From an uncultured Actinomycetes bacterium (GTDB taxonomy: Bacteria; Actinomycetota; Actinomycetes; S36-B12; CAIYMF01): a DNA stretch of 32,000 bases. The notes beneath the pieces were generated by a model that searched no databases, had not been told where the DNA came from, and saw only the letters and a program-made list of their open reading frames with translations. Position 1 is the stretch's first letter. Every line of letters starts with the position of its first letter. Positions 16,032-32,000 of this stretch are shown here, one piece after another. The stretch is taken from the NCBI GenBank assembly GCA_963843975.1, contig CAWJMG010000003.1, positions 1,500,001 to 1,532,000 on the forward strand, given 5' to 3'. The translations under genes were made by a program, and so were the position numbers.

Positions 16032-16140
16032 GGGTCACTCCTCCGTTGGGGCCGTCTGGGGTCGGCGTCCCGGACGAGGAGACGCGAGAAGGCTCGGGAT
16101 GTCGTCTCGGCGCGGCCGTCGCCGGCCGCTCGAGCGGGCG

Positions 16141-16530
16141 TCAGTAGACGATGAACTCGATGACGTTGCCGTCGGGGTCGAGGATGAAGGTCTGCCGATC
16201 GGCTGCCGGAGAGTTGGGCAGTTCGTAGACGGGCACGCCATGGGCGCGCAGGCCGTCGAGGTAGGCGTCGAGATCCCCCATGAACCGGATGGCGAAGTGC
16301 GGGTCGTTGGCCCGGAGAGGCGCATCGTGACCGCGCATAGTGCCGCCGGTCGTCAGGTGCACGGGGTTGCCTGAGATGCTCAGCCATGCACCGGGGAAAC
16401 CGAAGTCGGGGCGAGGGATCTGCTCGAGGCCGAGCAGGTCGCAGTAGAACTTCACGGACGCGTCGATGTCGGACACGCTGATGCTGACGTGGTCGAACCT
16501 GAAGGACGCGTCGGGGTCGAGTGCGTTCAT
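16141..16530 (-). CDS. VOC (glyoxalase/bleomycin-resistance/dioxygenase) family protein
   Basis: 129 aa from ATG 16530. FRFDHVSISVSDIDASVKFYCDLLGLE and HFAIRF...LRAHGVPV...ILDPDGNVIEF are the paired beta-alpha-beta-beta-beta module signatures. The longer listed ORF (to 16752) runs across the terminator palindrome. Confidence 0.8.
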   Translation of the reverse strand: MNALDPDASFRFDHVSISVSDIDASVKFYCDLLGLEQIPRPDFGFPGAWLSISGNPVHLTTGGTMRGHDAPLRANDPHFAIRFMGDLDAYLDGLRAHGVPVYELPNSPAADRQTFILDPDGNVIEFIVY

Positions 16531-16627
16531 GCGGCAAGCCTCATCCGACGGTGGCGGGCTGTCTTCGTTGGTCATCACAAGGACGCGCGCGTTTGTTGTG
16601 GGCAGCCCGCGCCAGGGAGGACGAGAC

Positions 16628-16667
16628 GGGTGTGGCCCCGGTGCCGATCGGCACCGGGGCCACACCC
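16628..16667 (-). terminator. Perfect 40-bp palindrome (18-bp GC-rich stem around GATC) downstream of the ABC substrate-binding protein gene
   Basis: GGGTGTGGCCCCGGTGCC-GATC-GGCACCGGGGCCACACCC lies 22 nt after the stop at 16689. It has no strong U-tract and is symmetric, so it could act in either direction. Confidence 0.6.
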
Positions 16668-16688
16668 GTTCTGGCAGCGCTGGGACTG

Positions 16689-18041: not shown

Positions 18042-18101
18042 TCGGATCCCTTCGATGCGGTGACGAGTCCCCTTGGAGTCCACTGGGGAACTCCCTCTAC
18101 T

Positions 18102-19076
18102 TCACTTCCTGCGGCTGAATCCACCGGCGCGTGTGGTGAGGAGGGCCACGAGAACGACTACGCCGTACAGGACTGACTTCCAGCCTTCGGAGAACCCTGT
18201 GGCACCAATCACCACAGTGATCGCTGTCAGCAGAACCGTGGCGGCCACGGTGCTCTGCCAGACGCCTCGCCCGCTCCCGATCATCGTGCCGCCCACGAGG
18301 ACTGCCGAGATGGCGGGCATGAGCCATTCGTCGCCGAGGCTCAGCTGTGCATTGCCGGAGAAACCGAGAAGCATCACTCCGGCGATGCCCGCACCGAGAC
18401 CGCACAAGGCGTAGATCCCGATGAGGATTCGATCGGTCGGGCGACCAGCGATCCGGGACGCCTCCGCCGAGCTTCCGACGAGATAGGCGTTGCGGCCGAA
18501 CCGCCCCTTCATCTGGAGTCCATATCCAAAGAGCGACACCAGGATGAAGAAGAAGACAGGGATCCCGATCCCAAACCACTCGCCCGCGCCGCTGAACAGC
18601 GTGACCACAAGGTCAGGCGCCGCGGGCGCCTTGCGGCCGAACGTCCAGCCGATGGTGAGGCCGACCAGGATCCCGTTGACGGCGAGCGTCACGATGAACG
18701 CCGGGATGTCAAACTTCGCGACGAGATAGCCGTTGAAGTTGCCGACGACGAACGACGCGGCAAGTGCCAGGGCGACGGCGACTACCACGTTGAGGCCGTA
18801 GACGCTCGTGCCCAGCGCAGTGATCGTCGCGGACAGGGCGACCACTCCGGGGACTGACAGATCAAGGCCGCCCGTGAGCATCACGAGGCCCTGCCCCAGC
18901 GCAATCACGGCGATGAAGAGGCTGAAGGTGAGGATGCTCTCGACAGCGCGCCAGGAGGGAAGCGACTCGCTGACGAGGCGTCCGGCCACCAGAACCACGA
19001 CCGCGAGACCGGCAATGATCAGCGGACGCCAGAAGCCTTGTGAGGTGAATCGACGGGGCACGACCACGGTGGACAT
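18102..19076 (-). CDS. ABC transporter permease (CUT2/ribose-type)
   Basis: 324 aa and polytopic. It resembles RbsC/branched-type permeases (LTGGLDLSVPGVVAL..., GGTMIGSGRG). Its ATG shares one nt with the upstream permease stop (TGATG at 19074-19078). Confidence 0.88.
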   Translation of the reverse strand: MSTVVVPRRFTSQGFWRPLIIAGLAVVVLVAGRLVSESLPSWRAVESILTFSLFIAVIALGQGLVMLTGGLDLSVPGVVALSATITALGTSVYGLNVVVAVALALAASFVVGNFNGYLVAKFDIPAFIVTLAVNGILVGLTIGWTFGRKAPAAPDLVVTLFSGAGEWFGIGIPVFFFILVSLFGYGLQMKGRFGRNAYLVGSSAEASRIAGRPTDRILIGIYALCGLGAGIAGVMLLGFSGNAQLSLGDEWLMPAISAVLVGGTMIGSGRGVWQSTVAATVLLTAITVVIGATGFSEGWKSVLYGVVVLVALLTTRAGGFSRRK

Positions 19077-20086
19077 CAGACCGCTCCCTCAGTGGCAACA
19101 GGCGCCTCGAGCGGCATGGGTCGAAGCGAGAGGAACTGCCGCGTCAGCTGGCGCCGGGCTGCAATCGCGCCCACAAGGACGGCGAGGATGATGATCACGC
19201 CGGTCACGACCTGTGCCATCCAGTTGCTCACCTGGAGCACGAAGAGAAGCTTCGGCATGGCCACGAGGATCAAGGCCCCGAATAGCGTGCCCACGCCCGA
19301 GCCGCTGCCGCCGATGAACGCGGTGCCGCCGATCGCGACAGCCGCGAAGGTCGAGAGCAGGAATGAGTTGCCGATCGTCGCGTCACCCGTCTCGGTGCTG
19401 ATCGAGAGCAGGATCCCGGCAAGCGCATAGAGCCCGCCGGCTGCCGCGAAAAGGGTGATACGGACCGGCTTGATCGCGACTCCTGACAGGTGCAGCGCCT
19501 CTTCATCCTCGCCGAGGGCGAACATGTAGAGGCCGAGCCGCATGCGGCGGAAGACCATCCACGCGAGCCCGATGATGACAATGATGATCAGGGCCCTCGG
19601 GATGAACAGGTGCCCCTTGACCGCGTTGACGAGTTCCTTGGGGACCGTCCCTCCGGGTTGCGGCAGCAGCACGAGAGACAGGCCCTGAAGGATGATGAGC
19701 GTCGCCAGGGTCACTGCGATGGCAGGCAACCTGCCGTAGACGACGAGCAGCCCGTTCACAGCGCCGATCCCCGCACCGATCAGGAGCAGGAGCACGGCCA
19801 TGAGCCACGGGTTCATGCCCTTGAACGTGGTGACCACCAGGACATCCACCAGCGTGACAACGCCCGCGGCCGACAGGTCGAACTGGCCCATGATGATCAC
19901 CAGCGTCACGCCGATCGCCGCGACGATGAGCGGTAGAGCGAGGATCAGATACCCCTCGATCAGGCGGGAGCTGAGTCCGCCCAGCTGGAACCGCGACCAG
20001 AGGATGACGATCAGTGCGAGGAAGATCGCGGCACGAGCGGTACCGCTCGCTCCGACGCGTCGGAGCGAGCTCCCGATGGCGCTCAC
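19076..20086 (-). CDS. ABC transporter permease (CUT2/ribose-type), paralogue of the downstream permease
   Basis: 336 aa and polytopic (GQFDLSAAGVVTL..., IGGTAFIGGSGSG). Its GTG start overlaps the ATPase stop (GTGA at 20083-20086). Confidence 0.88.
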   Translation of the reverse strand: MSAIGSSLRRVGASGTARAAIFLALIVILWSRFQLGGLSSRLIEGYLILALPLIVAAIGVTLVIIMGQFDLSAAGVVTLVDVLVVTTFKGMNPWLMAVLLLLIGAGIGAVNGLLVVYGRLPAIAVTLATLIILQGLSLVLLPQPGGTVPKELVNAVKGHLFIPRALIIIVIIGLAWMVFRRMRLGLYMFALGEDEEALHLSGVAIKPVRITLFAAAGGLYALAGILLSISTETGDATIGNSFLLSTFAAVAIGGTAFIGGSGSGVGTLFGALILVAMPKLLFVLQVSNWMAQVVTGVIIILAVLVGAIAARRQLTRQFLSLRPMPLEAPVATEGAV

Positions 20087-21609
20087 GCGATCAGCTCCCC
20101 GCCGTTGTGAGTGCCGGCGACGTGGCCCACGGCGGCAGACATGATGTTTCCCTCTCGGATGTCAGCACCGCTGAACTCGGCCGCCACCTTGCCCGCGTAC
20201 AGGACGATCACTCGATCGCAGAGGCCCACCAGCTCAGGGATCTCCGTGGAGTACAAGAGGATCGCCCCACCGGCCTCTGCTGCCCGTCGGAGCGTCCCGT
20301 AGACCTCCAGCTTCGCCGACGGGTCGATGCCTCTGGTCGGGTCGAACATCAGAAGCACCTGCGACGACGTCAGCGCGGTTCGTCCGAGGATGGACTTCTG
20401 CTGGTTCCCACCAGACAGCTGGCCCACCTCGCGGAGGAGGTATTCGGCCGGCAGTTTCGCGTCATCGCCGGTCTCCTGTGCGAGCTTGAGCTCTTTCTTG
20501 CTGCTGATGAAGCCGAAGCGACTGATCCGACCGAGGGCGGTCGACGTGATGTTCTGGGACGTCGGAAGGTCCGAGAACAGCCCTTCCCGCTTGCGCTCCT
20601 CCGGAACCAGTGCGATGCCGCTGCCTCCTTGCATTGCCGAGCGCGGAGAACGGAGATCGACCGGCTCGCCGTTGATGGTCGCGTCCCCCGCCGTCAGCCG
20701 GACCGCGCCTGCGAGGCCGTAGAAGAGCTCCCGCTGCCCCTGCCCCTCGAGCCCCGCTACACCGACGATCTCGCCCTCACGGATGTCGAGGTCGACGTGC
20801 CGGACTCGGCTCCCCACAGTGATGTCGTGAGCCGACAGGACCACCGGCTCATCGCCCGTGAGCGGTTCGGCCCGAGGCGGGAAGGCGAGGTCGATCGACC
20901 TGCCGATCATCTGGGAGATGAGGACGTTGGGGTCGAAGTCGGGGTCGTCGAAGCTACCGACGATGAGGCCGTTGCGCATGATCGTCCCGCGGTGGCACAG
21001 CTGCTGGATCTCGCGAAGCTTGTGCGAGATGTAGACGACGGTCGTGCCTTCCTCCACCAGCGCACGGACGTGTCCGAAGAGCCACTCCGTCTCGGGCAGC
21101 GCTGCCGTCGGCTCGTCGAGGATGAGGATCGGCGGTCGGAGGTACATGGCGCGCACGAGCTCAAGACGCTGCTTGGCGCTCAGCGGGAGAGTGCTCACAG
21201 GTGCGTCCGCCGGCAGGTCGTCCACACCCCACTCGTCGAGGATCTCCTGCGCCTTGCGGGTGACCAGCCGTCGCGTGACGACACCAAATGTCTTCGGCAG
21301 GTCGGAGATCAGGAGGTTCTCGGCGACGGTCAGGTTGTTCAGGAGAGAGAGCTCCTGAAACGAGGTGCTGATGCCGGCATGCCGCGATGACGCCGGGTGC
21401 CCGAACACCAGTTCCTTGCCGTCGACGGTGACGGATCCGGCATCCGGCGTCACCATGCCAGAGAGGCACTTCACCAGCGTCGACTTCCCGGCCCCGTTCT
21501 CGCCGACGATCGCGTGGATCTCGCCTTGCTGCAGTGTGAGTGAAGCGTCCTTGAGCGCGATCGCGTCGCCGTACGCCTTCGACAGGCCGACGACCTCGAG
21601 AGCATTCAC
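20083..21609 (-). CDS. ABC transporter ATP-binding protein with duplicated ATPase domains (RbsA/MglA/XylG-like)
   Basis: GTG 21609 has AAGGAGAA 7 nt upstream. Domain 1 has Walker A GENGAGKST and Walker B ILILDEPTAAL. Domain 2 has a degenerate Walker A (GLEGQGQRE), the signature LSGGNQQK and Walker B LLMFDPTRGID. Confidence 0.9.
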   Translation of the reverse strand: MNALEVVGLSKAYGDAIALKDASLTLQQGEIHAIVGENGAGKSTLVKCLSGMVTPDAGSVTVDGKELVFGHPASSRHAGISTSFQELSLLNNLTVAENLLISDLPKTFGVVTRRLVTRKAQEILDEWGVDDLPADAPVSTLPLSAKQRLELVRAMYLRPPILILDEPTAALPETEWLFGHVRALVEEGTTVVYISHKLREIQQLCHRGTIMRNGLIVGSFDDPDFDPNVLISQMIGRSIDLAFPPRAEPLTGDEPVVLSAHDITVGSRVRHVDLDIREGEIVGVAGLEGQGQRELFYGLAGAVRLTAGDATINGEPVDLRSPRSAMQGGSGIALVPEERKREGLFSDLPTSQNITSTALGRISRFGFISSKKELKLAQETGDDAKLPAEYLLREVGQLSGGNQQKSILGRTALTSSQVLLMFDPTRGIDPSAKLEVYGTLRRAAEAGGAILLYSTEIPELVGLCDRVIVLYAGKVAAEFSGADIREGNIMSAAVGHVAGTHNGGELIA

Positions 21610-21664
21610 GCGCGACTTCTCCTTACCACTGGGGTGGTGACTAGTGGTACGCACACCGGAGCCG

Positions 21665-21810: not shown

Positions 21811-23134
21811 TCAGCCCACGACGCGCTCTATCAGCCTTTCCTTCTGCGCACCCGGCCGCTCGATCGACCCCTCGGGTACGAGCGAGACGTTCGTGCGCAC
21901 CGTGAGCGCATCCCGCACGGCGTCCTCGATCTGTCGCGCCAGCTCGCCGTGCGCGTGCACGTCCGAGCCGGCGACCTCCACCCGCGCCGAGAGTGCCTGG
22001 TACGTGCTGTGGCCCACGAAGTCGATGTCGAGCTTCAGATATCCCGTGGTCCGCGGCCGGAAGCCCATGACGACCTCCTTGATCGCGGCCGGGAAGACGT
22101 TGACGCCTCGAACGATGAGCATGTCGTCGGCCCTGCCGTGGGCCTTGATGCGATACCCCGTGCGCCCGCACCGGCATGCGGTCGAGGTGACGGTGACGAC
22201 GTCGCCCATCCGGTAGCGCATGAGAGGTGTCGCCCTGCGCCGCAGGGTCGTATAGACGAGCTCGCCCGACACGCCCTCCTCGACTGGAAGCGGTTCCAGG
22301 GTGTCGGGATCGATGATCTCGACGTGCAACGCGGCCTGCGAGCAGAGGTGCATGCCATCCTTCTCGTCGCACTCGGCCCAGTACGTCGATCCGAAATCGG
22401 CGCCGCCCATCATGTCCCGCACGTCGGCGTTCCAGAGGGACTCCATCTGCTGTCGGATCGCCGGCTCGCCTGCGCCGGGCTCGCCCCCGACCGAGATCTT
22501 GCGTACCGAGAAGCTCCGTCGCGTCCTTTCCGAGCACGTCCCGGGCCGCCGCGCCCAGGTGCGCAACCATGGACGGTGTCGCGCACATCGCCACGGGCTT
22601 CAGGTGGTCTATGGCGCGCAGCAGACGCTCCGTGCCCGACTCCGCTCCGAGCGGGATCACGGCACAGCCGAGGTGCTGCAGGTGCTCGACGTTGACGAGC
22701 CCCCCGACGAATCCTCGACCCATCGCGTACGCGTGCATCACCCAGTCGCGAGGGCGGAACCCGTTTGCGTAGAAGACCCGGGCCCCCATCGCGTTCCAGG
22801 TCTCGAGATCCTCCGAGGTGGCCGCGACGAATGTCGGCGTGCCCGTCGTCCCGGAGGAGGACTGGATCTGCACGATCTCGTCGAGTGCGGCCGCGACGTG
22901 CAGCCCTAGCGGCGGACGGGTGACGAGGCTCTGTCGCACCTCGTCCTTCGTCGTGAACGGCATCTCCGCCAGATCCCGAAGCGAGCCGATCCTGGGACGA
23001 ACCTCGGCGAGCTTCTGCTGGTAGAACTCGGACCTCGCCATCACGTAGTCCATCTGCTCCTGGAACAGACGCTCGTGCACCGCCTCGACCTCGGCCCATG
23101 GCTGGGCCTCGATCGGATCGAAGACGTCGGCCAC
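21811..23134 (-). pseudogene. Phenylacetate-CoA ligase / coenzyme F390 synthetase family (PaaK-like) adenylate-forming enzyme, interrupted by an apparent 1-nt insertion near 22510-22513
   Basis: The N-terminal about 207 aa read in the frame of ORF 21641..23821, from GTG 23134 (AAGGTGG upstream; includes the SSSGTTGTPT AMP motif). The C-terminal about 233 aa read in the frame of ORF 21811..22566 (KISVGGEPG..., LMRYRMGD, MLIVRGVNVFP). The junction reads ...GKDATEL | SVRKISVGGEP. Removing one base gives a continuous 440-aa product. Confidence 0.8.
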
Positions 23135-23138
23135 AGCG

Positions 23139-24161
23139 TCACACCACCTTGCGGATCTCGTCGGGAAGGCCGTACATGCGGAACTCCGGGACGACGCCCT
23201 GGCCGAAGAGCTGGATCGCCTTGGCGGTCTGGCCCGCGTGCATCGTGTGGTACGCGAGACGCGCCACCAGGTAGTTGACGCCGAGCTCCGCCTGGTAGCG
23301 GTACAGCTGCTCGATGCATGTGTCGGGGTCGCCGATGACGAACCTGTCGGCCGCGTAGTCCTCGAAGGTCGTGAACTCCTGGACCTCGCCCGACGCGGCG
23401 AACTGCCGGTAGAGGGAGTCGAGCGCAGGCCGTGCGTGCTCGAGCGCCTCTGCCGTCGTGGGTGCCACGAACACCTCGCGTGCGAGGGGAACGATCTCGC
23501 CGGCGCGGGGAGTGCGTCCGACGTAGAGCGGGCGGAGCTCCTCGAGCGACAGGTGCGCGGAGCCGAAGTGCGGAAGGCCTTCCGCCGCGGCCGCACGGGC
23601 CGCAGTGTCCCCTCCCGCCAGCCACATCGGCATCTCCAGCTGAGCAGGCTTGGGCTGCACCGATATCGAGTGGAGGCCGGCCGCCACGGTGTGCGCCTCC
23701 AACTCTCCGGGGATCGTGTGGAACTCGCTGTGATGGTTGAAGGGGTTGGGCCCCCAAGACTTGCGGAGGACGGCGATGTCGTCGCGGATCCGCTCGACGC
23801 TGTTCTGGCCGCGCCAGCCACGGGCCACCTCGTCGGAGGCCACCTGGCCCGCGACGATCACGCGGCCGTTGGAGATGTTGTCGATGCAGGCGACCTCCTC
23901 GGCGACGTAGATCGCGTTGACGAGCCCGAGGATGGGCATCATCCCGATGCGCAGGTGGGTCGTCCGGTGGGCCAGCGCAGCGGCCACGACGGACGACGAC
24001 GCATTGAACGACGACGCCGTGAAGTTGCGCTCGTCGACCCATACGGAGTCGAACCCCCACCACTCGGCGATCACTGCCTGCTCGAGGGCCTCCTCGTACA
24101 CGTCGACGTGGTTCTTCCCAGCCGCCGCCTCGATGGTGAGCGGACCCAGTCCGAAACGCAT
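23139..24161 (-). CDS. Luciferase-like monooxygenase (LLM) family flavin/F420-dependent oxidoreductase, 'B-type' subunit, copy 1
   Basis: 340 aa. ATG 24161 has a GAGGAG ribosome-binding site. MRFGLGP...WGFDSVWVDER...RIGMMPILGL...YVAEE are TIM-barrel LLM signatures. It is a paralogue of 30488..31531. Confidence 0.88.
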   Translation of the reverse strand: MRFGLGPLTIEAAAGKNHVDVYEEALEQAVIAEWWGFDSVWVDERNFTASSFNASSSVVAAALAHRTTHLRIGMMPILGLVNAIYVAEEVACIDNISNGRVIVAGQVASDEVARGWRGQNSVERIRDDIAVLRKSWGPNPFNHHSEFHTIPGELEAHTVAAGLHSISVQPKPAQLEMPMWLAGGDTAARAAAAEGLPHFGSAHLSLEELRPLYVGRTPRAGEIVPLAREVFVAPTTAEALEHARPALDSLYRQFAASGEVQEFTTFEDYAADRFVIGDPDTCIEQLYRYQAELGVNYLVARLAYHTMHAGQTAKAIQLFGQGVVPEFRMYGLPDEIRKVV

Positions 24162-24189
24162 GGTGTCTCCTCAGTCGCTGTGTCAGGCG

Positions 24190-25236
24190 TCAGACGTACG
24201 GGATGACTTCGGTGGCCAGCAGTTCGAGCGACCGCAGGTACTTCTTCCGCGGGAGCGAGTCGAACCTCGTGCCGAAGATGATGTGGTCGACGCCGGTGGC
24301 AGCGATCTCACGGACACCGCGCAGCACGCGCTCGGGTCGCCCGATCGTGCGCTCGTGGACGGAGACGAGCTTCGCCGCCGCGGCGTCGAGCTCGCGCGGC
24401 CGGTCGAAGCCGACGGGCTCGCCTTCGTCGTCGACGAGGTAGCGCCAGCCGCCGAGCTGCTCACGGAGCAGGAACCGCAACGACGGGAGTGCCTCGCGGT
24501 ACGCCTCCTCGTCCGTCTCCGCGACCCATCCGCGCCGCAGCACCGCGATCTTGGCGCCGGAGTCGGACGTGCCGAACTCCTCCTGCGAGGTCCGGTAGAG
24601 CTCGATGTGGTGGCGCATCTGCTCGAGGGTGAGAGCGTCGGACAGGATGATCGAGGCCCCGAGGCGCGCCGCGCGCTTCACCGGGTTGGTGCCCACGGCG
24701 GCGATCCAGATCGGGATCTCGCGCTGGATCGGCTTGGGGGTCACCGACACGTCGGGGACCTGGAACTGCTGGCCCTCGAAGCTCACCGGGGAGTCGCCCC
24801 AGGCGCGCTTGAGGACCTCCACCCCCTCCTCGAACCGGGGACGGCGGGTCCGGCGGTCGATGTTGAAGCCGTCGAACTCGTTGTCGCGGTAACCCAGGCC
24901 GAGGCCGAGATCGAGACGGCCTCCCGACAGCTGGTCCACGACGGCCGCCTGGTGCGCGACCCGCAGGGCCTCGTGCTCGCTGAACAGGAGCGTCGACTGC
25001 CCGATCCGGATGTGCTTGGTGGCGGCGGCGATGCCACCGGCGACGGTAAGGAGCGAGGGGCAGTAGCCGTCGTACCAGAAGTGGTGCTCGGTCTGCCAGA
25101 TCGTATGGATCGTGCGCAGCTCGTCGACGAACTGCGCGTCCTCCATCAGCTCGTTGTAGAGGTAGGAGAAGTGACGCGGCCCCGCCTTCGTGGACTGGAG
25201 GCTCCAGATGCCGACCCCGATCTCAACCTTCCCCAT
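24190..25236 (-). CDS. Luciferase-like monooxygenase (LLM) family oxidoreductase, 'A-type' subunit, copy 1
   Basis: 348 aa. ATG 25236 has GAAGGAG 6 nt upstream. It contains IGVGIWS...WQTEHHF...RIGQSTLL...QLSGGRLDLGLGLGY. It is a paralogue of the partial gene at 31533..32000. Confidence 0.88.
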   Translation of the reverse strand: MGKVEIGVGIWSLQSTKAGPRHFSYLYNELMEDAQFVDELRTIHTIWQTEHHFWYDGYCPSLLTVAGGIAAATKHIRIGQSTLLFSEHEALRVAHQAAVVDQLSGGRLDLGLGLGYRDNEFDGFNIDRRTRRPRFEEGVEVLKRAWGDSPVSFEGQQFQVPDVSVTPKPIQREIPIWIAAVGTNPVKRAARLGASIILSDALTLEQMRHHIELYRTSQEEFGTSDSGAKIAVLRRGWVAETDEEAYREALPSLRFLLREQLGGWRYLVDDEGEPVGFDRPRELDAAAAKLVSVHERTIGRPERVLRGVREIAATGVDHIIFGTRFDSLPRKKYLRSLELLATEVIPYV

Positions 25237-25287
25237 GAGGGACTCCTTCGGTGCGTGCCGCGGGCGCTGCAGACGGACGGATGTGTT

Positions 25288-25303
25288 TACTACCCTCGTA
25301 GTA
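25288..25303. promoter_or_regulatory. Inverted repeat TACTAC-CCTC-GTAGTA in an AT-richer patch upstream of LLM-A1 (candidate operator or internal promoter)
   Basis: It lies 52-67 nt upstream of the LLM-A1 start, inside the 105-nt gap after the 3-hydroxyacyl-CoA dehydrogenase gene. A direct GTAGGG repeat sits nearby (25301-25306 and 25312-25317). Confidence 0.3.
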
Positions 25304-25341
25304 GGGCGACTGTAGGGACGGCCCCACCGCGGGGCAATGCG

Positions 25342-26193
25342 TCAGGGCCATGGGTAGAACCCCTGCCCGGACTTCTTGCCGAGGTGGCCCTCGGCGACCA
25401 TGCGCCGGAGCAGCACCGGCGGCTCGAAGCGGTCGCCGTAGGTGCGGAAAAGGTTCTCGGCGATCGCCAGTCGCACGTCGAGACCGACGAGGTCCGTCAA
25501 ACGCAACGGCCCCATGGGATGTCGGTAGCCCAGTTCCATCGCCCGGTCGACATCCTCCACGCAGGCGACCCCTTCCTCGACCATGCGGATCGCCTCGAGC
25601 CCGAGCAGGACTCCGAGTCGCGACGACGCGAACCCGGGCCGGTCGCGGACGACGACCGCTTCCTTGCCCATGCGGTCGACGAGACGACGTGCGCCCGCGA
25701 CCGCGGCCTCCTCGGTCCTGTCGCCGACCACGATCTCCACGAGCGGGTTGGACCAGACGGGGTTGAAGAAGTGCATGCCCACGAGCTCGTCCGGGCGACT
25801 GAGGCCGTGAGCGATCTCGTCGATCGCGATGCTGCTGGTGTTGGTGGCGAGCAGGGCGGGGCGCAGGTCCTGAGCGGCCGACAGCACGTGCTGCTTGAGC
25901 TCCAGCGACTCGGGGACGGCCTCGACGAGCACGTGCGGCTCCCGAGCCACGACGTCGAGGCCCCCGACGACCAGCACACCGGCGTCGAGGGTCGACGCCT
26001 GCGCGGGGTCGAGGAGGCCGCGCTCCAGCGCGCCGTCGCGCAACTGCACCATCCTGGCGCGTGCCGTGGCGTGCCGGGTTTCGTCGACCTCCACGACCCA
26101 GACCCTGTAGCCGGCGGCCCAGAGCACGTATGCGATGCCCACGCCCATCGTGCCGCCTCCGACCACGACGGCCTGCTCCGTCCTCACGGTCAT
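25342..26193 (-). CDS. 3-hydroxyacyl-CoA (3-hydroxybutyryl-CoA) dehydrogenase
   Basis: 283 aa from ATG 26193. It has the Rossmann motif VVVGGGTMGVGIA plus ATNTSS, HFFNPV and MGPLRLTDLVGLD motifs. Its ATG overlaps the crotonase stop (ATGA at 26190-26193). The listed 611-aa ORF is an out-of-frame upstream extension. Confidence 0.9.
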   Translation of the reverse strand: MTVRTEQAVVVGGGTMGVGIAYVLWAAGYRVWVVEVDETRHATARARMVQLRDGALERGLLDPAQASTLDAGVLVVGGLDVVAREPHVLVEAVPESLELKQHVLSAAQDLRPALLATNTSSIAIDEIAHGLSRPDELVGMHFFNPVWSNPLVEIVVGDRTEEAAVAGARRLVDRMGKEAVVVRDRPGFASSRLGVLLGLEAIRMVEEGVACVEDVDRAMELGYRHPMGPLRLTDLVGLDVRLAIAENLFRTYGDRFEPPVLLRRMVAEGHLGKKSGQGFYPWP

Positions 26194-26984
26194 CGGAAGC
26201 GGGTGAAGTCGGGAGCGACCTTGTTGTTGAAGGCAGTCACGCCCTCGTTGGCCTCGTCGGACTTGACGAAGATGCCGAGGCCGTCGAAGGCCATGGCGGA
26301 GATCCCAGCTATGGACTCGGAGTCCGCATTGAAGGAGTGCTTGACCACCTTCAGCGCGGTCGGGCTGAGCGCGAGCATCTCGTCGGCCCAGCGGCGCACC
26401 TCGGCGTGCAGCTGCTCGAACGGGACGACGGCGTTGACTAGGCCCCAGTCCATCATCGTTCTCGCGTCGTACCGCCGGCACAGGTACCAGATCTCCCTTG
26501 CTCGTCGCGTTCCGACCAGACGAGCCAGGTACGCCGTGCCGAAGCCGGCGTCGTACGAGCCGACGCGCGGCCCGGCCTGGCCGAAGACTGCGTGCTCGGC
26601 CGCGATGCTCAGGTCGCAGACGACATGGAGTACCTGTCCGCCTCCGATGGCGTACCCGTTCACCGCGGCGATCACCGGCTTCGGGATGTCGCGGATGAGC
26701 CGCTGGAGGTACTCGTCCTGGAAGATGCCGTACTCGCTGGGGCCGTAGTCGCCGCTCTCCATCCGCTGCTTCTGGTCGCCGCCCACGCAGAAGGCACGCT
26801 CGCCGGCACCGGTGAGCGCGACGACCCCGACGGAAGGGTCGCCCCACGCCGTCTTGAAACAGTGGATCAGCTCGTCGATCGTCTGCGAGCGGAAGGCGTT
26901 GAGCCGGTCGGGGCGATTGATGGTGATCCAGGCGAGGCCTCGGTCGACCTTGTAGAGGACGTCCTCGAGAACGCGATCGCTCAT
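26190..26984 (-). CDS. Crotonase-superfamily enzyme of the MenB/BadI type (naphthoate synthase / 2-ketocyclohexanecarboxyl-CoA hydrolase-like)
   Basis: 264 aa from ATG 26984, with GAAGGAG 9 nt upstream. RPDRLNAF, FCVGGDQK, NGYAIGGG, GPRVGSYDAGFGTAYLARLVG, REIWYLCRRYDA and EGVTAFNNKVAPDF closely follow the MenB-family pattern. Confidence 0.85.
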   Translation of the reverse strand: MSDRVLEDVLYKVDRGLAWITINRPDRLNAFRSQTIDELIHCFKTAWGDPSVGVVALTGAGERAFCVGGDQKQRMESGDYGPSEYGIFQDEYLQRLIRDIPKPVIAAVNGYAIGGGQVLHVVCDLSIAAEHAVFGQAGPRVGSYDAGFGTAYLARLVGTRRAREIWYLCRRYDARTMMDWGLVNAVVPFEQLHAEVRRWADEMLALSPTALKVVKHSFNADSESIAGISAMAFDGLGIFVKSDEANEGVTAFNNKVAPDFTRFR

Positions 26985-27114
26985 GGCGGCTGGCTCCTTC
27001 ATCACGGGCGGGGATCGTTGACCGTCGCGCGTGCGCACGCCGGGGGCAGCAGGGTGCGGTCGGTGTGAGCCCACGCGGTCTTCCGCCATGGCGCCTCGGC
27101 AGGTCTCGCTCCGA

Positions 27115-27120
27115 TAACAT
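27115..27120 (+). promoter_or_regulatory. Candidate -10 hexamer TAACAT positioned for a leaderless transcript of the TrmB regulator
   Basis: This TANNNT-type hexamer ends 7 nt before GTG 27128. There is no Shine-Dalgarno sequence upstream of that start and no convincing -35 element. Confidence 0.3.
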
Positions 27121-27127
27121 CCCCGTC

Positions 27128-28006
27128 GTGGAACCGGACGCCGTCGCGATCGACACCCTCACCGCGCTCGGCCTCACGCAGTACGAGGCGCGGACCTACG
27201 TCGGGCTGGTCGGCCGCTACGGCCAGACCGCGTACGCGCTGTCCAAGGTGACGCGAGTGCCCCAGCCGAAGATCTACGAGGCCTTGCGCAAGCTGATCGA
27301 CCGCGGTGCGGTGGCGCTGGTGGGAACCGACCCGCAGCGCTTCGCCGCAGTCCCGCCGGAGACGCTCCTCGGGCGCCTGCGCTCCGAGTTCGCCGAGCGC
27401 GCGGACGCCGCGGAGCGCGAGCTCGCGCGGAGCATGCAGTCCTCGACGGGGGCCGACGTGTGGCCCTCCGTGCAGCTCGGGCTCACGGGACGCGATGCGC
27501 TCCTGGTCTCGGCACGCCAGATGCTCGCCGGAGCAGGCTCGAAGGTGTACCTGTCGGCATGGGGGGCGGAGCTGACCGACCTCATGCCGGCTCTCGTCGC
27601 TGCCGAGGAGCGCGGGGCCACCATCGTCCTGCTCGTCTTCGGACGGCAGAAGGTGTCCCTGCGGGACGCCCACGTCTTCCGCCACGGGACGACGTCGAAG
27701 ATGGTCTACCCCAACCACCAGAACCGGCACCTCGCCCTGGTGTGCGACGGGGCGGACTCCCTCTGGGGCCTGTACTCCCCCGAAGAGGCCTGGAGCGGGC
27801 TCGTCTCGCAGGATCGGCGCATGGTCAGCCTCGTCCGCGGGTTCATCCGGCACGACATCTACGTGCAGAAGACCTACGAGCAGTTCGGCCCCGAGATGGA
27901 AGGGGTCTTCGGCTCGGGCATGGAGCTGCTCGCAGACGTGCTCACCGACCAGGTGCGTTCGAACGCGGCGGCGCGCGGCCGGGCAGTGCGCAGCAGCGCA
28001 CGCTGA
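27128..28006 (+). CDS. TrmB family transcriptional regulator
   Basis: The N-terminal winged HTH LTALGLTQYEARTYVGLVGRYGQTAYALSKVTRVPQPKIYEALRKLIDRGAV is typical of TrmB, followed by a C-terminal effector-like domain. It is the only plus-strand gene in the island. The start is uncertain (the listed GTG 27065 is in frame). Confidence 0.78.
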   Translation: MEPDAVAIDTLTALGLTQYEARTYVGLVGRYGQTAYALSKVTRVPQPKIYEALRKLIDRGAVALVGTDPQRFAAVPPETLLGRLRSEFAERADAAERELARSMQSSTGADVWPSVQLGLTGRDALLVSARQMLAGAGSKVYLSAWGAELTDLMPALVAAEERGATIVLLVFGRQKVSLRDAHVFRHGTTSKMVYPNHQNRHLALVCDGADSLWGLYSPEEAWSGLVSQDRRMVSLVRGFIRHDIYVQKTYEQFGPEMEGVFGSGMELLADVLTDQVRSNAAARGRAVRSSAR

Positions 28007-28029
28007 GGTCCCCGAGCCCGCACGGCGCC

Positions 28030-29223
28030 TCATGTCGCCGACCTCGAGGCGAGGCGGTCCGCGTCGACGGGGCCGCATCCCAGCTCGAGGAGAACCTCAC
28101 GGGTGTGCTGTCCCAGCACAGGCGGAGGGGTGCGGGACGTCGTCTTGCCGCCGTCGACCCAGAAGGGCGACCCCTGCAGCCGGACGGTACCGGCGACCGG
28201 GTGCTGCAGAGTCTGGATCATCTCGTTGTGCTGGATCTGGGGATCGTCGACGACCTGCTGGTAGTCGAGGACCTGCCCCGCCGGGATGGCTGCCCGCTCG
28301 AACGTCGCGAGCCAGTGCGCGGTGCTCTTCTGCCCGAGGGCCACGTCGACGCGGCTCCGCAGCTCGGCTGCGTGGCGCACTCTGGACTCGTTGTCCGCGT
28401 AACGGGGATCGTCCAGGAGGTCGTCGAGGCCTAGCGTCCGGCAGAAGATCTCCCAGTGCTTGCCGTTCACGACCGCCAGGACGATCGTGCCGTCGGCCGT
28501 CTCGAACACGTCCGTCGGGGCCGTGAACGGTGACGCCGAGCCGAGCCGTCCGGGCTGCTCCCCGGTGGCGAGGAAGCTCGTGAACCAGCAGGCCTGCAGG
28601 GCGAGGAACGCGTCGCGGAGCGACACGTCGATCCGGCGTCCACGGCCCGACACCGATCGCCCGACGAGGGCGGCGTTGATGCACGCGGCCGCGGTCGTGG
28701 CGGCGTACACGTCCGCGGCGTTGGTGCCCACCTTCGCCGCGGGCCCGTCCGGCGATCCGGTGATCGCCATAATCCCGGACTCGGCCTGGAACAGCAGGTC
28801 GATGCCGGGTCGTCGCGCCATCGGGCCGGTGGGGCCGAACCCCGAGATCGCGCAGTAGACAAGACCTGGACTGCTGTCCGCGAGGTCGTCGTAGCCCAGC
28901 CCCAGTCGCTCGACCACGCCGGTACGGAAGTTGTGCACGAGAACGTCGGAGCGCAAGGCCAGGGCACGGACCCACGAGCGCGCCTCAGGGTCCTTGAGGT
29001 CGACCCGGACGCTGCGTTTCCCACGGTTCACCGACAGGAAGAACGCGCTCTCGCCACCGTCGACGAAGGGTGCGAACTGCCTGGCCATATCCCCTTCGGG
29101 CGGCTCGACCTTGACCACGTCGGCGCCGAGGTCGGCCAGGAGCATCCCGCAGTAGGGCGCGGCCACGAGCGCCCCCAGCTCCAGCACCCGGATCCCCTCG
29201 AGCGGGCGCGGCGACGTGGTCAC
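28030..29223 (-). CDS. Family III CoA-transferase (CaiB/BaiF family)
   Basis: 397 aa from GTG 29223. GIRVLELGALVAAPYCGMLLADLGADVVKVEPPEGD is the family N-terminal signature, with VLVHNFR and YCAISGFG downstream. Its start overlaps the thiolase stop (GTGA at 29220-29223). Confidence 0.88.
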   Translation of the reverse strand: MTTSPRPLEGIRVLELGALVAAPYCGMLLADLGADVVKVEPPEGDMARQFAPFVDGGESAFFLSVNRGKRSVRVDLKDPEARSWVRALALRSDVLVHNFRTGVVERLGLGYDDLADSSPGLVYCAISGFGPTGPMARRPGIDLLFQAESGIMAITGSPDGPAAKVGTNAADVYAATTAAACINAALVGRSVSGRGRRIDVSLRDAFLALQACWFTSFLATGEQPGRLGSASPFTAPTDVFETADGTIVLAVVNGKHWEIFCRTLGLDDLLDDPRYADNESRVRHAAELRSRVDVALGQKSTAHWLATFERAAIPAGQVLDYQQVVDDPQIQHNEMIQTLQHPVAGTVRLQGSPFWVDGGKTTSRTPPPVLGQHTREVLLELGCGPVDADRLASRSAT

Positions 29224-30411
29224 GGGCGCTCCAGCATCAGGGAGACGCCCTGGCCGACTCCTACGCACAGCGTGGCCATGCCGCGACGCGCTCCGGATGC
29301 CTCGAGCCGTCGGGCCAGCGTGATGGCGAGGCGCGCCCCCGAGCAGCCCAGAGGGTGCCCGACTGCGATGGCGCCGCCCCACGCATTCACCCGCCCGGGG
29401 TCGATCCCGAGGCGGGTGGTGCAGGCCAGGACCTGGGGCGCGAAGGCCTCGTTGATCTCGACCACGTCCACGTCGTCGATCGACAGGTCGAGTCGCTGGA
29501 GCAGCCGCTCGGTGGCGGGCACCGGACCGAGGCCCATGAGCGACGGCGGGACACCTGCGCTAGCGGCTCCGACGACGCGCGCCAGCGGCGTGAGGCCGTG
29601 CCGCCGGACTGCCTCGTCCGACGCGAGGAGCACGACCGCAGCACCATCGGAGAGCGGGGACGACGAGCCCGCCGTCACGATGCCGTCGGCCAGGAACGAG
29701 GGTCGGAGCGTCGCGAGCTTCTCCAGCGAGGAGTCGCGGCGGGGGCCCTCGTCGATCGCGACGGCGCCGTCCATCGTCGTCACCTCGAGGATGTCCGGCG
29801 CGAGGAGCCCGGCGTCGATGGCGGCGATGGCCCGCCGGTGGGACTCGACGGCGAGCGCGTCGGACTGCTCGCGCGTGATGCCGTCCAGCCGGGCCACGCG
29901 CTCCGCCGTCTCGCCGAGGGAGATCGTGGCGCTGCCGCCGTCGAGATCACGCATGCGGGGGTTGACGAACCGCCAGCCGAGCGCGCTGTCATGGGTCTCG
30001 GTGGGCCTGGACCAGGCAGTGCTGGGGCGGGCGGTGACCCAGGGCGCACGGGTCATCGACTCGACGCCGCCGGCGATCACGATGCCGGCCTCGCCCGCGC
30101 GGATCTGCTGGGCCGCCGAGGCCACCGCCGTGAGGCCCGAGGCGCACAGCCGGTTCACCGTGTAGCCGGGCACCTCCGCCGGGAGGCCCGCGAGGAGCGA
30201 CGCCATGCGGGCGACGTTCCGGTTGTCCTCGCCCGCCTGGTTTGCGCAGCCCAGCACGACCTCGTCGACGGCATCCGGTCCGATCCCGGCCCGGGCGACG
30301 AGCCTCCGCGATGACCAGGGCGGCGAGATCGTCGGGACGAACACCGGCGAGCCCTCCGCCCAGCCGTCCGATCGGCGTCCGCACACCGAGGACGAGATGG
30401 ACCTCGGTCAT
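29220..30411 (-). pseudogene. Thiolase (acetyl-CoA C-acyltransferase, PaaJ/PcaF/FadA-like), interrupted by an apparent 1-nt insertion at about 30303
   Basis: The first 36 codons read in the frame of ORF 29989..30411 (MTEVHLVLGVRTPIGRLGGGLAGVRPDDLAALVIAE). The rest reads in the frame of ORF 29220..30386 (LVARAGIGPDAVDEVVLGCANQAGEDNRNVARMA..., NRLCASGL, GVESM, NEAFA, GHPLGCSGARL, CVGVGQG). Removing one base gives a continuous 396-aa thiolase. Confidence 0.82.
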
Positions 30412-30487
30412 GACGCGGCACCCGCGAGGAGGGGCTCGACGATGGGCCCACCTGCGGGCCCCTCGTGATCGACCGCTCCCCCAGGTG

Positions 30488-31531
30488 TCACACGCCCACC
30501 CGGATCTGGCGCGGCAGGTCCGGCATGCGGAACTCCGGGATCACCTCACTGCTGAAGAGCTTCATCGAGGCCAACAGCTGGTGCAGCGGCATGCCCGGGA
30601 AGTGCATGCGGCAGACGAGGTGATCGAGACCGAAAGCGTCGTCGAGGTCACGGATCTCCGCGATCACCTGCTCGGGGCTGCCGATGATGAAACGGCCCGC
30701 GGCGAGGGAGGCGAAGTCCGAGGCTTCCCCCTGCCACAGGCCCCAGTCGGCGTAGCGCTGGAACTGACGCGCCAGCATCGGAGCCACCTCTGCGGCGGCG
30801 TCGGCGCTGTGCGAGACGTAGACGTCCCGGATGAGCACGCGCGGCGTGCGACGGCCCTGCCGGGGCGCCGCCGCGTCGTAGGCGGCCCAGTGCGCGCCCA
30901 GTGCGCTGTTCTCCGAGACCGCCCCCAGGACCATGGGGAGTCCGAGCTCCGCAGCGATGTCGCGCCCGGGCTGCCAGAACCCGCCGATCCACAGTGGGAG
31001 CTCGAACTGGGCGGGCTTCGGCGTGACCGTCACGGTCCCCGACACGTTCTCGACGTGCCCCTCGAGCTGGGCCGGGATCGTCCAGTGGCTGCCGTGGAAG
31101 GAGAAGGGGCGGGAGGCCCACGCCCGGGTGAGCACGTCGAGGGACTCGACGTAGCGCTCGTGGTACTCCTGCTCGCCCAGGCCGTGGGCTGCCAGCTCGT
31201 GGGCGACGGCGTTCACCGGCGCGATGATCGCCCGGCCTCCCGACAGGTTGTCGAGGACCGCCGCGTCCTCCGCGACGTAGAGGGGGTGGGTCAGGCCGAG
31301 CACGGGCAGCACGCCGATCCTGATGGAGTCGGTCTTCGCTGCGAGATTGGCCGCCGCGATGAACGACGACGGGCAGTAGCCGTCGTCGGTGAAGCCGCGC
31401 TCGGCCACCCAGGCGGACTCGAAGCCCCAGCTCTCCGCAGCTCTGACGGCCTCCCCCATGAGCTCGTAGGCCTCGGTCCAGCCGATGCCCTCGTGCTTCT
31501 CGGCCGCGAAGGGGCCCAGTCCGAACCGCAT
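30488..31531 (-). CDS. Luciferase-like monooxygenase (LLM) family oxidoreductase, 'B-type' subunit, copy 2
   Basis: 347 aa. ATG 31531 lies 1 nt after the upstream stop, with AGGAAGG upstream. It aligns along its length with 23139..24161: MRFGLGP, WGFES/DS.WV.ER.FT, RIG..P.LGL, YVAE, TIP..LE.H, V.PKPAQ.E.P.W, VIPEFRM..LP..IR. Confidence 0.88.
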   Translation of the reverse strand: MRFGLGPFAAEKHEGIGWTEAYELMGEAVRAAESWGFESAWVAERGFTDDGYCPSSFIAAANLAAKTDSIRIGVLPVLGLTHPLYVAEDAAVLDNLSGGRAIIAPVNAVAHELAAHGLGEQEYHERYVESLDVLTRAWASRPFSFHGSHWTIPAQLEGHVENVSGTVTVTPKPAQFELPLWIGGFWQPGRDIAAELGLPMVLGAVSENSALGAHWAAYDAAAPRQGRRTPRVLIRDVYVSHSADAAAEVAPMLARQFQRYADWGLWQGEASDFASLAAGRFIIGSPEQVIAEIRDLDDAFGLDHLVCRMHFPGMPLHQLLASMKLFSSEVIPEFRMPDLPRQIRVGV

Positions 31532-31532
31532 G

Positions 31533-32000
31533 TCACGCCTTCCTGGGAGTGGTGGACAGTGCCGGCATCACTTCGGTCGCCAGGAGCTCCATGGCCCTGT
31601 GCAGCTGCGGCTGGGTCTGCGAGATCAGGTGGCTCCGGGCGATCACGAAGTCCACCCCGACCGACTCGAGGTCCTTCAGCCGACGGATGACCGTCTCCGG
31701 CGTCCCGACGGCGGCGTTGTTGCGCACGACGCCCTCCGCGGCGCGGCGCAGCGCGTCAGGCTGCTCGAACCCCAGCGAGTTCCCGTTCTCGTCGGAGAGG
31801 TAGCGCCAGCCGCCGAGCTGCTCCATGAGGAACGACTTCAGCCGTGGCATGACCACGGTCTCGGCAGCGGCCGCCGACTCGTCGACCCAGACATAGCGCA
31901 GGATGCCGATACGGGCCTTGCTGTCGTCGACCCCGTGCTCGGCCGCAGTGCTGCGGTACAGCTCGACGAGCTGGCCTGCGCGACGGTCGTCGTGGGCGTC
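31533..32000 (-). CDS. Luciferase-like monooxygenase (LLM) family oxidoreductase, 'A-type' subunit, copy 2; 5' end lies outside the window
   Basis: The reading frame stays open to position 32000. The listed ORF starts at an internal Met (31856). The C-terminal region ...ELYRSTAAEHG...RLKSFLMEQLGGWRYLSDENGNSLGFEQP...LELLATEV.P parallels LLM-A1 (...ELYRTSQEEFG...LRFLLREQLGGWRYLVDDEGEPVGFDRP...LELLATEVIP). Confidence 0.85.
   Translation of the reverse strand, partial: DAHDDRRAGQLVELYRSTAAEHGVDDSKARIGILRYVWVDESAAAAETVVMPRLKSFLMEQLGGWRYLSDENGNSLGFEQPDALRRAAEGVVRNNAAVGTPETVIRRLKDLESVGVDFVIARSHLISQTQPQLHRAMELLATEVMPALSTTPRKA

Follow-up and report, generated by a model that had tools for sequence, protein, structure and literature searches.

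A candidate CoA-thioester catabolic island with two luciferase-like gene pairs in aquatic Actinomycetota

Described systems and the conserved island

The described systems closest to the locus reported here are the bad/ali genes of Rhodopseudomonas palustris (AliA, AliB, BadK, BadH, and BadI) and the aerobic chcpca cluster of Rhodococcus aetherivorans BCP1, in which a 'naphthoate synthase' gene (badI), badH, aliA, and aliB are induced 70–800-fold on cyclohexane- and cyclopentane-carboxylate (PMC5906575). Our locus lies in a stretch of 32,000 nucleotides from an uncultured Actinomycetes bacterium (contig CAWJMG010000003.1, positions 1,500,001–1,532,000; hereafter the window). It encodes a PaaK-like coenzyme A (CoA) ligase, a family III CoA-transferase, a crotonase of the MenB/BadI subfamily with an adjacent 3-hydroxyacyl-CoA dehydrogenase, two pairs of luciferase-like monooxygenases (LLMs), and a sugar-type ATP-binding cassette (ABC) importer. 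We tentatively read it, from its genes, as an island conserved among aquatic Actinomycetota for the catabolism of a hydrophilic cyclic carboxylic acid, either alicyclic or partly reduced. As in bad/ali and chcpca, CoA activation of a cyclic acid would be combined with a 2-hydroxyacyl-CoA dehydrogenase beside a MenB/BadI-type crotonase and with onward β-oxidation. However, neither bad/ali nor chcpca is represented as a whole, since only the BadI-like and dehydrogenase functions are found. The island has a PaaK-type ligase and the CoA-transferase but no AliA-type ligase, and neither the window nor the syntenic loci contain an acyl-CoA dehydrogenase, a second crotonase (BadK-type hydratase), or an ANL-type ligase. 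The dehydrogenase is of the 3-hydroxyacyl-CoA dehydrogenase type in most loci, whereas BadH is a short-chain dehydrogenase/reductase (SDR). Moreover, bad/ali has no LLM genes and is regulated by TetR or BadR proteins, whereas the island has four LLM genes, the sugar-type importer, and regulators of the TrmB and PucR types, and its crotonase lacks a catalytic tyrosine of the proteobacterial BadI-type sequences.

The phenylacetate (paa) pathway also offers parallels, as both have a ligase of the PaaK family, a 3-hydroxyacyl-CoA dehydrogenase similar to PaaH, a thiolase similar to PaaJ/PcaF, and a ring-processing enzyme with the crotonase fold. Yet, the island lacks the PaaABCDE epoxidase and PaaZ, its crotonase scores 142 bits against PaaG and 338 bits against MenB, and its ligase falls far below the PaaK cut-offs. 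The LLM genes resemble LuxAB in being adjacent paralogs with the catalytic-type gene first and a His-His pair in one subunit, but luxCDE are lacking, the two pairs share an operon with CoA-thioester enzymes, and the heteromers of the island are a prediction. Another heteromeric LLM enzyme is the pristinamycin IIA synthase SnaAB. Camphor degradation likewise uses LLM-family enzymes, the diketocamphane monooxygenases, followed by the CoA activation of a cyclic acid; however, it has no BadI-like step, the importer type of the island suggests a hydrophilic substrate, and the PDB matches at E ≤ 1e-5 included no diketocamphane monooxygenase. The likeness to nicotine catabolism is limited to a neighboring FAD monooxygenase that resembles 2,6-dihydroxypyridine 3-hydroxylase, with no other genes of that pathway. 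The steroid ipd/ech genes were considered and rejected, the scores being far below the cut-offs for EchA19 (139 versus 400 bits) and for the steroid thiolase (239 versus 515 bits). Full-text literature searches found no paper on this gene combination, although the literature coverage was incomplete and an earlier description elsewhere is possible. These searches and the comparisons with bad/ali, paa, camphor, and steroid genes gave no match, in line with a first-pass annotation of the sequence that had not recognized the combination as a described pathway.

Open reading frames (ORFs) in the window, which has a GC content of ~70%, were chosen by third-position GC (GC3), and their products were assigned by Pfam and NCBIfam profile searches. 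The searches agree with the families that the first-pass annotation had named for the ligase, LLMs, crotonase, dehydrogenase, transferase, thiolase, and TrmB regulator. That annotation counted ten co-directional genes in 21811–32000; the count is nine, all on the minus strand, plus the TrmB gene, which is indeed the only one oppositely oriented. Two of the three overlaps it listed are true start/stop overlaps (ATGA at 26190–26193 and GTGA at 29220–29223), whereas there is no overlap at 31531–31533, where a single spacer base separates the LLM_D stop codon (TGA, 31533–31535) from the LLM_C ATG at 31531. The unit is also larger than first described: a CUT2 importer (16689–21654) and an EthD-like gene (14752–15702), encoded further downstream on this strand, are conserved along with it. 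The annotation had the cluster continue past 32000; synteny bears this out for just the remaining part of LLM_D and a divergent module of regulator and oxidoreductase genes, and the main extension runs downstream to ~14752 instead. The 76 nt that separate LLM_C from the start of the thiolase gene contain an inverted repeat (30429–30464; 18-nt arms, 78% complementary). Promoter and terminator scans gave no signal above background.

Loci for comparison came from scanning genomes with the crotonase and metagenomes with LLM_B, and from contig look-ups. The full island order is kept in at least 13 independent metagenomic contigs with GC contents of 40–68%, and the island is also present in a Nanopelagicales metagenome-assembled genome and, in permuted order, in Microcella alkalica DSM 19663. 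The common order is LLM_D, LLM_C, an optional thiolase or CofC gene, CoA-transferase, TrmB (on the opposite strand), crotonase, dehydrogenase, LLM_B, LLM_A, ligase, ATPase, two permeases, binding protein, and EthD-like protein. This recurring gene order is more than chance, and the genes are co-conserved, as the pathway put forward in the first-pass annotation required. The TrmB-family regulator (27065–28006, plus strand; Pfam TrmB helix-turn-helix (HTH) domain, 64 bits) is divergent from the crotonase operon and has orthologs at the matching position in at least 10 loci; its start may be nearer 27128, and the alignment with its orthologs begins at 27149.

The importer, encoded on the minus strand, consists of a fused double ABC ATPase (20083–21654; two stretches of Pfam ABC_tran), two permeases (18102–19076 and 19076–20086; both BPD_transp_2), and a CUT2 (sugar-type) substrate-binding protein (16689–18083; Peripla_BP_4). 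The ATPase probably starts at 21609, where residue 1 of its ortholog aligns. Both permeases are co-conserved with the island, and the binding protein shares 59–79% identity with its counterparts in the syntenic loci and 74% with that of Arthrobacter sp. 1088, its best solved relatives being monosaccharide and autoinducer-2 (AI-2) binding proteins. Judged by these family assignments, an importer of the sugar type and a TrmB regulator suggest that the substrate is hydrophilic, not a terpenoid or hydrocarbon-like acid. The EthD-like protein (14752–15702, minus strand; ~300 residues, Pfam EthD) is a conserved accessory component, 55–70% identical to the product of the gene following the binding-protein gene in six loci (L088, L092, L096, L101, L102, and L104). 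Its AlphaFold model, with a predicted local distance difference test (pLDDT) score of 92, has a tandem ferredoxin-like α+β barrel. The Foldseek matches of this model are weak, with template modeling (TM) scores of 0.39–0.47 to a bacterial chalcone isomerase, an anthrone oxidase-like protein, sulfur oxygenase reductase, and methylmuconolactone isomerase; these would be likenesses at the fold level, from which no function is drawn. An insert of ~1 kb between the binding-protein and EthD genes (15750–16752, minus strand), absent from the syntenic loci, carries an ORF for a YCII-like protein of 93 residues (15750–16031) and an unannotated ORF with high GC3 (~16141–16680).

The loci vary in several components. 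The thiolase is optional, being present in about half of the loci, and in L086 and L087 its slot holds a genuine gene of F420 biosynthesis, CofC/FbiD (TIGR03552, 124 bits; cut-off, 105); L096 has a weak CofC match (35%) at a different position. An SDR replaces the 3-hydroxyacyl-CoA dehydrogenase in L006, L090, and L096. Upstream of LLM_D, the syntenic loci carry a divergent module that encodes a GAF-PucR regulator, a Zn-dependent dehydrogenase, and a group A FAD monooxygenase. The last of these matches 2,6-dihydroxypyridine hydroxylase (PDB 2vou) over its full length with 270 bits; in the genome studied here, this hydroxylase lies outside the window and is expected beyond 32000 by synteny alone. 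In Microcella alkalica (L002/L006, 447–5638), five genes are inserted between the binding-protein and EthD genes, encoding an AttM/AiiA-type lactonase, an ApbA-like reductase, an SDR, a two-domain rhodanese, and a metallo-β-lactamase-rhodanese fusion similar to persulfide dioxygenases. In addition, L096 contains a class B flavoprotein monooxygenase of the Baeyer-Villiger-like type, and L107 contains two PRISE-type enone reductases. These additions, SDRs among them, would suit conversions of cyclic ketones, enones, and lactones, and the lactonase and the class B flavoprotein are compatible with a ketone-to-lactone step. An organosulfur substrate, prompted by the rhodanese and persulfide dioxygenase-like genes of Microcella alkalica, was dropped, as those genes are absent from all other loci.

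Two further genomes carry parts of the island. L003, a genome of 2.9 Mb, keeps just the crotonase (84% identical) and the PaaK-like ligase (8634–13249), a minimal or remnant island. Genes for a Zn-dependent dehydrogenase and an FAA-hydrolase-family protein flank these two, next to FtsEX, and L090 and L105 share this left flank. In Arthrobacter sp. 1088, importer, EthD, PucR, dehydrogenase, and hydroxylase genes occur with no CoA module within 10 kb. Nearby in that genome are an old yellow enzyme homolog, a set of LLM, SnoaL, and flavin reductase genes, and a thiamine diphosphate (ThDP)-dependent enzyme encoded as three ORFs for its N, M, and C domains (L126, 14088–15411), which is probably a pseudogene or a sequencing artifact. 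In two unrelated genomes, a set of LamB/YcsF, CT_C_D, CT_A_B, biotin carrier protein, and biotin carboxylase genes adjoins the island (L002, 16263–20514; L007, 75–2310). This five-gene set resembles a split urea-carboxylase-like enzyme and is absent beside the island in the metagenomic contigs; its position is possibly a coincidence. Searches of plasmids with the EthD-like protein and LLM_B revealed just distant homologs of ~30–35% identity, with no synteny.

The crotonase and the other CoA-thioester enzymes

The crotonase gene (26190–26984, minus strand) encodes a presumed ring-opening hydrolase, the true product being 264 residues rather than the 299 of the ORF. It scores 338 bits against PRK07396, a model of MenB (1,4-dihydroxy-2-naphthoyl-CoA synthase), (cut-off, 380) and 309 bits against TIGR01929 (cut-off, 343), below both, while Bacillus MenB reaches 510 and 442 bits, respectively. 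Similarly, its score of 327 bits against TIGR03210, the model of BadI (2-ketocyclohexanecarboxyl-CoA hydrolase), is below the cut-off of 467.6, whereas proteobacterial BadI-type sequences score 453–466 bits. No other model listed, the hydratase-type ones included, gave more than 155 bits. Ordinary enoyl-CoA hydratases use two catalytic glutamates, Glu144 and Glu164 in the rat enzyme. At these positions the crotonase reads GGGQ and GQAGP, as in MenB, so that both glutamates are missing. The first-pass annotation had placed the enzyme in the MenB/BadI subfamily, apart from ordinary hydratases, and both the scores and the residues bear this placement out. The active-site residues of MenB, which we take to be Tyr97, Ser161, Asp163, and Tyr258 (E. 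coli numbering), are only partly retained: the crotonase keeps Tyr97, Gly156, Ser161, and Asp163, but the Tyr258 position is occupied by a valine, Val240. Across the whole actinobacterial superclade, this position is Val, Thr, Gly, or Leu, whereas it is Tyr in Bacillales MenB and in the proteobacterial BadI-type sequences. By these sequence criteria, the enzyme would be neither a hydratase, nor MenB, nor a canonical BadI.

In a neighbor-joining tree with 80 relatives, the crotonase falls into a tight clade, every member of which adjoins a PaaK-like ligase. The sister clades are actinobacterial and are encoded next to BadH-like SDRs, AliA-like ligases, and acyl-CoA dehydrogenases; by gene content, these gene sets match the chcpca cluster (PMC5906575), and their crotonases are 60–69% identical to that of the island. 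The dehydrogenase gene overlaps the crotonase stop codon, and thus the genomic association typical of BadI, with a dehydrogenase and with alicyclic-acid genes, is observed. This context supports a BadI-like ring-opening role as the putative function of the crotonase.

The neighboring 3-hydroxyacyl-CoA dehydrogenase (25342–26193, minus strand; Pfam 3HCDH_N and 3HCDH) remains below every NCBIfam equivalog cut-off. The ligase (21811–23134, minus strand) matches PaaK models and AMP-binding_C_2 in its C-terminal half and AMP-binding in its N-terminal half, with a +1 frameshift near 22510. The C-terminal half scores 116–129 bits, below the PaaK equivalog cut-offs of 646–700 bits. An intact ortholog matches PaaK (PDB 4r1l, E = 6e-58) and 2-hydroxyisobutyryl-CoA synthetase (PDB 6hdw, E = 1.5e-43), and there are weak matches to the biosynthetic PaaK-like ligases FlxY and BagE/FevW. 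The ligase is thus classed by its profile matches as a member of the PaaK-like superfamily only, and no paaABCDE genes are present. The family III CoA-transferase (28030–29223, minus strand) covers Pfam CoA_transf_3 (PF02515) at full length (417 bits, 1–366/366) but reaches no equivalog cut-off; its best NCBIfam models, those of succinate-glutarate and succinyl-CoA:mesaconate transferases, are both below cut-off. The thiolase (29220–30411, minus strand), which resembles 3-oxoadipyl-CoA thiolase and has a 1-nt insertion near 30303, passes the acetyl-CoA C-acyltransferase model TIGR01930 (409 bits; cut-off, 241) but fails the pcaF equivalog (449 versus 597 bits). It belongs to a degradative family, as expected for the finishing step that the first-pass annotation had assigned to it, but its presence in only about half of the loci does not fit an obligatory step.

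The luciferase-like pairs

Pair 1 is formed by LLM_A (23139–24161; Pfam Bac_luciferase, 104 bits), a degenerate partner, and the LuxA-like LLM_B (24190–25236; Pfam, 187 bits), which is probably the catalytic subunit. Pair 2 consists of the degenerate LLM_C (30488–31531; Pfam, 134 bits) and the LuxA-like LLM_D (31533–32000; Bac_luciferase), of which the C-terminal 155 residues are inside the window. All four genes are on the minus strand. LLM_B and LLM_D share 42–44% identity and LLM_A and LLM_C share 30–38%, while the A/C-type and B/D-type proteins are 24–30% identical; LLM_C of the window has 34–38% identity to LLM_A and 26–30% to LLM_B. Between loci, the identities are 78–84% for LLM_B and ~72–75% for LLM_D, compared with 60–75% for LLM_A and 63–72% for LLM_C; the part of LLM_D inside the window is 72–75% identical to full-length orthologs. 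LLM_B has an invariant WQTEHHF motif, which aligns with His44 and His45 of LuxA, and LLM_D orthologs carry EHRF. In contrast, the motif is variable in LLM_A (ERNF, EANF, or EKNF), where the His-His pair is lost, and contains no histidine in LLM_C (ERGF, ERYF, or ERQF). LLM_A and LLM_C also have a deletion in the DQxSxGR segment (three residues in LLM_A) and a C-terminal extension, and their orthologs gave no NCBIfam match at 1e-25. The two genes of a pair are adjacent in every locus, with the His motif in one subunit of each pair. Because LLM_B is closer to LLM_D, and LLM_A to LLM_C, than the A/C type is to the B/D type, and because the His motif is kept in LLM_B and LLM_D alone and these subunits are better conserved, the pattern supports the duplication of a two-gene unit with a catalytic and a degenerate subunit, as in LuxAB. 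From this gene pattern, we infer that LLM_B with LLM_A and LLM_D with LLM_C would form heteromers.

The cofactor of these proteins is less clearly indicated. The nearest solved structure to LLM_B is the homodimeric LuxA of Enhygromyxa salina (PDB 8cbb, 112 bits), followed by 7bip and PuwE. LLM_B scores 67–112 bits against LuxA structures but 32–55 bits against the F420 enzymes Mer, Fgd, and Adf, and the B/D subunits reach ~78–98 bits against the LuxA model (cut-off, 600). Conversely, their top NCBIfam family is F420_Rv2161c (TIGR03619), with 129–148 bits (LLM_B, 148) versus a cut-off of 166.9, and they match the MupA/Atu3671 family of natural-product LLMs with 107–125 bits. The LLMs could thus be F420-dependent redox enzymes rather than oxygenases. 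Structures of diketocamphane monooxygenases exist in the PDB. At E ≤ 1e-5, LLM_B matched 25 PDB sequences and LLM_A six; none of them was such an enzyme, and a Baeyer-Villiger role of the kind raised in the first-pass annotation would be one possibility among several. The LLM_B family is rare, with 136 clusters at E ≤ 1e-30 among 5.8 billion.

Proposed pathway, alternatives, and neighboring genes

In the proposed catabolic pathway, the CUT2 sugar-type transporter would import the compound, and the ATP-dependent PaaK-like ligase and/or the family III CoA-transferase, probably with succinyl-CoA as the donor, would form its CoA thioester. The two LuxAB-like heteromers, each combining a catalytic subunit of the B/D type with a degenerate one of the A/C type, would carry out flavin- or deazaflavin-dependent oxygenation or redox steps; these could stand in for the acyl-CoA dehydrogenase and hydratase of bad/ali or could prepare a substituted ring. 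The 3-hydroxyacyl-CoA dehydrogenase, or the SDR in some variants, would then yield a 2-oxo-cycloalkane-carboxyl-CoA, whose ring would be opened to a dicarboxyl-CoA by the MenB/BadI-type crotonase through retro-Claisen hydrolysis. The thiolase, where present, and the CoA-transferase would trim the product toward acetyl-CoA and succinyl-CoA, with expression presumably controlled by TrmB and the neighboring GAF-PucR regulator. CoA activation and hydrolytic ring opening are retained from the pathway suggested by the first-pass annotation, which, however, omitted the importer and accessory genes, treated the optional thiolase as a fixed component, and did not separate the crotonase as a distinct clade without the tyrosine. 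If this proposal is correct, the island would represent a CoA-dependent ring-opening pathway built from a new combination of parts: a PaaK-type ligase, two LuxAB-like LLM heteromers, a tyrosine-less crotonase of the MenB/BadI clade, and a sugar-type importer. An actinobacterial crotonase clade now annotated as 'naphthoate synthase' would thereby gain a function, and the LLM family a new type of reaction, on or near CoA thioesters. The carriers of the island are planktonic actinobacteria relevant to freshwater carbon turnover. The lead is testable, since the cultured Microcella alkalica DSM 19663 has the island and Arthrobacter sp. 1088 has the uptake module.

A bolder form of this proposal, which we consider unlikely, is that the two pairs constitute a heteromeric enzyme class not seen before, dependent on flavin or F420 and acting directly on a cyclic acyl-CoA, either replacing the dehydrogenase and hydratase or dearomatizing an aroyl-CoA, and that abundant freshwater Actinomycetota (Luna-type Microbacteriaceae and Nanopelagicales) thereby consume a hydrophilic, hydroxylated alicyclic acid of natural dissolved organic matter.

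Several observations weigh against the proposed pathway. A sugar-type importer together with a TrmB regulator is unusual for a carboxylic acid, and the similarity of the neighboring hydroxylase to 2,6-dihydroxypyridine hydroxylase is a hint that the ring is heteroaromatic or enolic and not simply alicyclic. The chemistry of the crotonase may differ from that assumed, because the enzyme is below the MenB and BadI cut-offs and is without the second catalytic tyrosine. The cofactor of the LLMs appears ambiguous, the nearest structures indicating FMN and the top NCBIfam family, CofC, and the PPOX gene described below indicating F420, and no flavin reductase is conserved in the island. Furthermore, the arrangement in Arthrobacter sp. 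1088 means that the uptake and CoA modules could be separable, and if the frameshift in the PaaK-like gene is real, this copy is without a ligase.

Some of these points lead to other explanations. The LLM pairs might be F420H2-dependent hydride transferases that dearomatize an aroyl-CoA in a reductive route for a hydroxylated aromatic or heteroaromatic acid, such as a dihydroxypyridine-carboxylate or a resorcylate, after which the dehydrogenase and the BadI-like hydrolase would open the reduced ring, i.e., the logic of anaerobic benzoyl-CoA degradation in an aerobe. The F420-dependent hydride transferases of picrate degradation are related to methylene-tetrahydromethanopterin reductase and hence belong to the LLM superfamily, which counts for this route. 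So do the top rank of F420_Rv2161c for the B/D subunits, the lack of a conserved flavin reductase, the F420-dependent PPOX-class gene (TIGR03618) near the island, the hydroxylase match of 270 bits, and the PucR type of the neighboring regulator. The CofC/FbiD gene found above cut-off in the thiolase slot is a further point in its favor, but it occupies that slot in L086 and L087 alone, with only the weak 35% match elsewhere in L096. We nevertheless regard this route as quite unlikely: the B/D subunits are below the F420 family cut-off (129–148 versus 167 bits), the nearest solved structures are FMN enzymes, with 112 bits for LuxA versus 32–55 bits for Mer, Fgd, and Adf, the EHHF motif is as in LuxA, and the importer is of the sugar type. 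It is also rather improbable that the locus consists of two unrelated neighboring units, one for the uptake and oxidation of a sugar or cyclitol (with the ABC transporter, EthD, PucR, Zn-dehydrogenase, and FAD hydroxylase) and the other a separate CoA-thioester module, in which case the importer would say nothing about the substrate of the CoA enzymes. Such a division would agree with the gap of 156–200 nt between the ligase and ATPase genes in the window, with the retention of crotonase and ligase only in L003, and with Arthrobacter sp. 1088, where the uptake module stands alone (binding protein 74% and dehydrogenase 78% identical) and is combined with the ThDP enzyme, the old yellow enzyme homolog, and the LLM and flavin reductase genes. 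Yet, the adjacency of the two parts outlasts three rearrangements (Microcella alkalica, L096, and L107) over 40–68% GC, which is hard to explain without functional coupling. Finally, the island might be biosynthetic, with the MenB-like enzyme performing a Dieckmann cyclization and MupA-like LLMs tailoring a thioester-bound intermediate toward a small product of aromatic or quinone-like nature. MenB, for its part, is a cyclase, the B/D subunits match the MupA/Atu3671 family and the PuwE structure, and the ligase weakly matches FlxY and BagE/FevW. However, the importer and its binding protein, the 3-hydroxyacyl-CoA dehydrogenase, and the thiolase of degradative type are hallmarks of catabolism, the relatives of the crotonase occur in degradative clusters, and there is no polyketide synthase, non-ribosomal peptide synthetase, carrier protein, or exporter; a biosynthetic role is thus highly improbable.

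A different kind of alternative concerns this copy of the island, in which the frameshifts in the ligase and thiolase genes might be real mutations of a decaying, non-functional pathway. The N- and C-terminal halves of the ligase are in different frames, while five orthologs are single ORFs of 440–450 residues, and the extra G near 30303 shifts the first 38 codons of the thiolase gene into another frame. An exact-protein look-up yielded two independent short Logan contigs nearly identical to the window, L001 (run ERR12037365) and L128. L001 is 99.94% identical to the window over 1788 nt, and its one gap is the missing thiolase G, so that its ORF is intact. The thiolase frameshift is therefore probably an assembly error, because it is absent from this independent and otherwise identical contig, and that of the ligase is probably one too. 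L128 is 100% identical and ends at 22514, four bases short of the ligase frameshift site; this end could reflect reads disagreeing at that position, and such heterogeneity would fit decay, as would the occurrence of two frameshifts within nine genes, neither of them in a long homopolymer. Apart from the thiolase base missing from L001, decay is countered by the intact state of the remaining genes, with a GC3 of 0.82–0.92 throughout the island, i.e., a codon bias that is not eroded, and by a possible third frameshift in a neighboring gene, which suggests a general rate of indel errors in the assembly. Altogether, decay seems very unlikely. The neighboring gene (12856–14386, minus strand) is an ORF with four tandem HTH_3 (XRE-type) domains; a fifth HTH is located just upstream in another frame and represents either a further frameshift or a separate small gene.

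Beyond the EthD gene, the catabolic island proposed here may reach a region containing a cupin and a Zn-dehydrogenase gene (10705–12230), because a second Zn-dependent alcohol dehydrogenase (11223–12230, minus strand), possibly island-associated, is 50–55% identical to the products of island-side genes of L101 and L107. The gene beside it (10705–11205, minus strand) encodes a single-domain cupin. A second possibly island-associated gene (12285–12806, minus strand) encodes a PNPOx-fold protein of the Rv1155 type, assigned to the F420-dependent PPOX-class oxidoreductases by TIGR03618 (87.8 bits; cut-off, 79), which suggests that the source organism uses coenzyme F420. The remainder of the window (1–10680) contains unrelated genes, encoding an S9 peptidase, an MscS channel, an NmrA/DUF2867 protein, a bacterial globin, an alpha-amylase-family enzyme, a major facilitator superfamily (MFS) transporter, and a LacI regulator. 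The GC content of this left third is ~72%, compared with 65–69% across the transporter part of the island.

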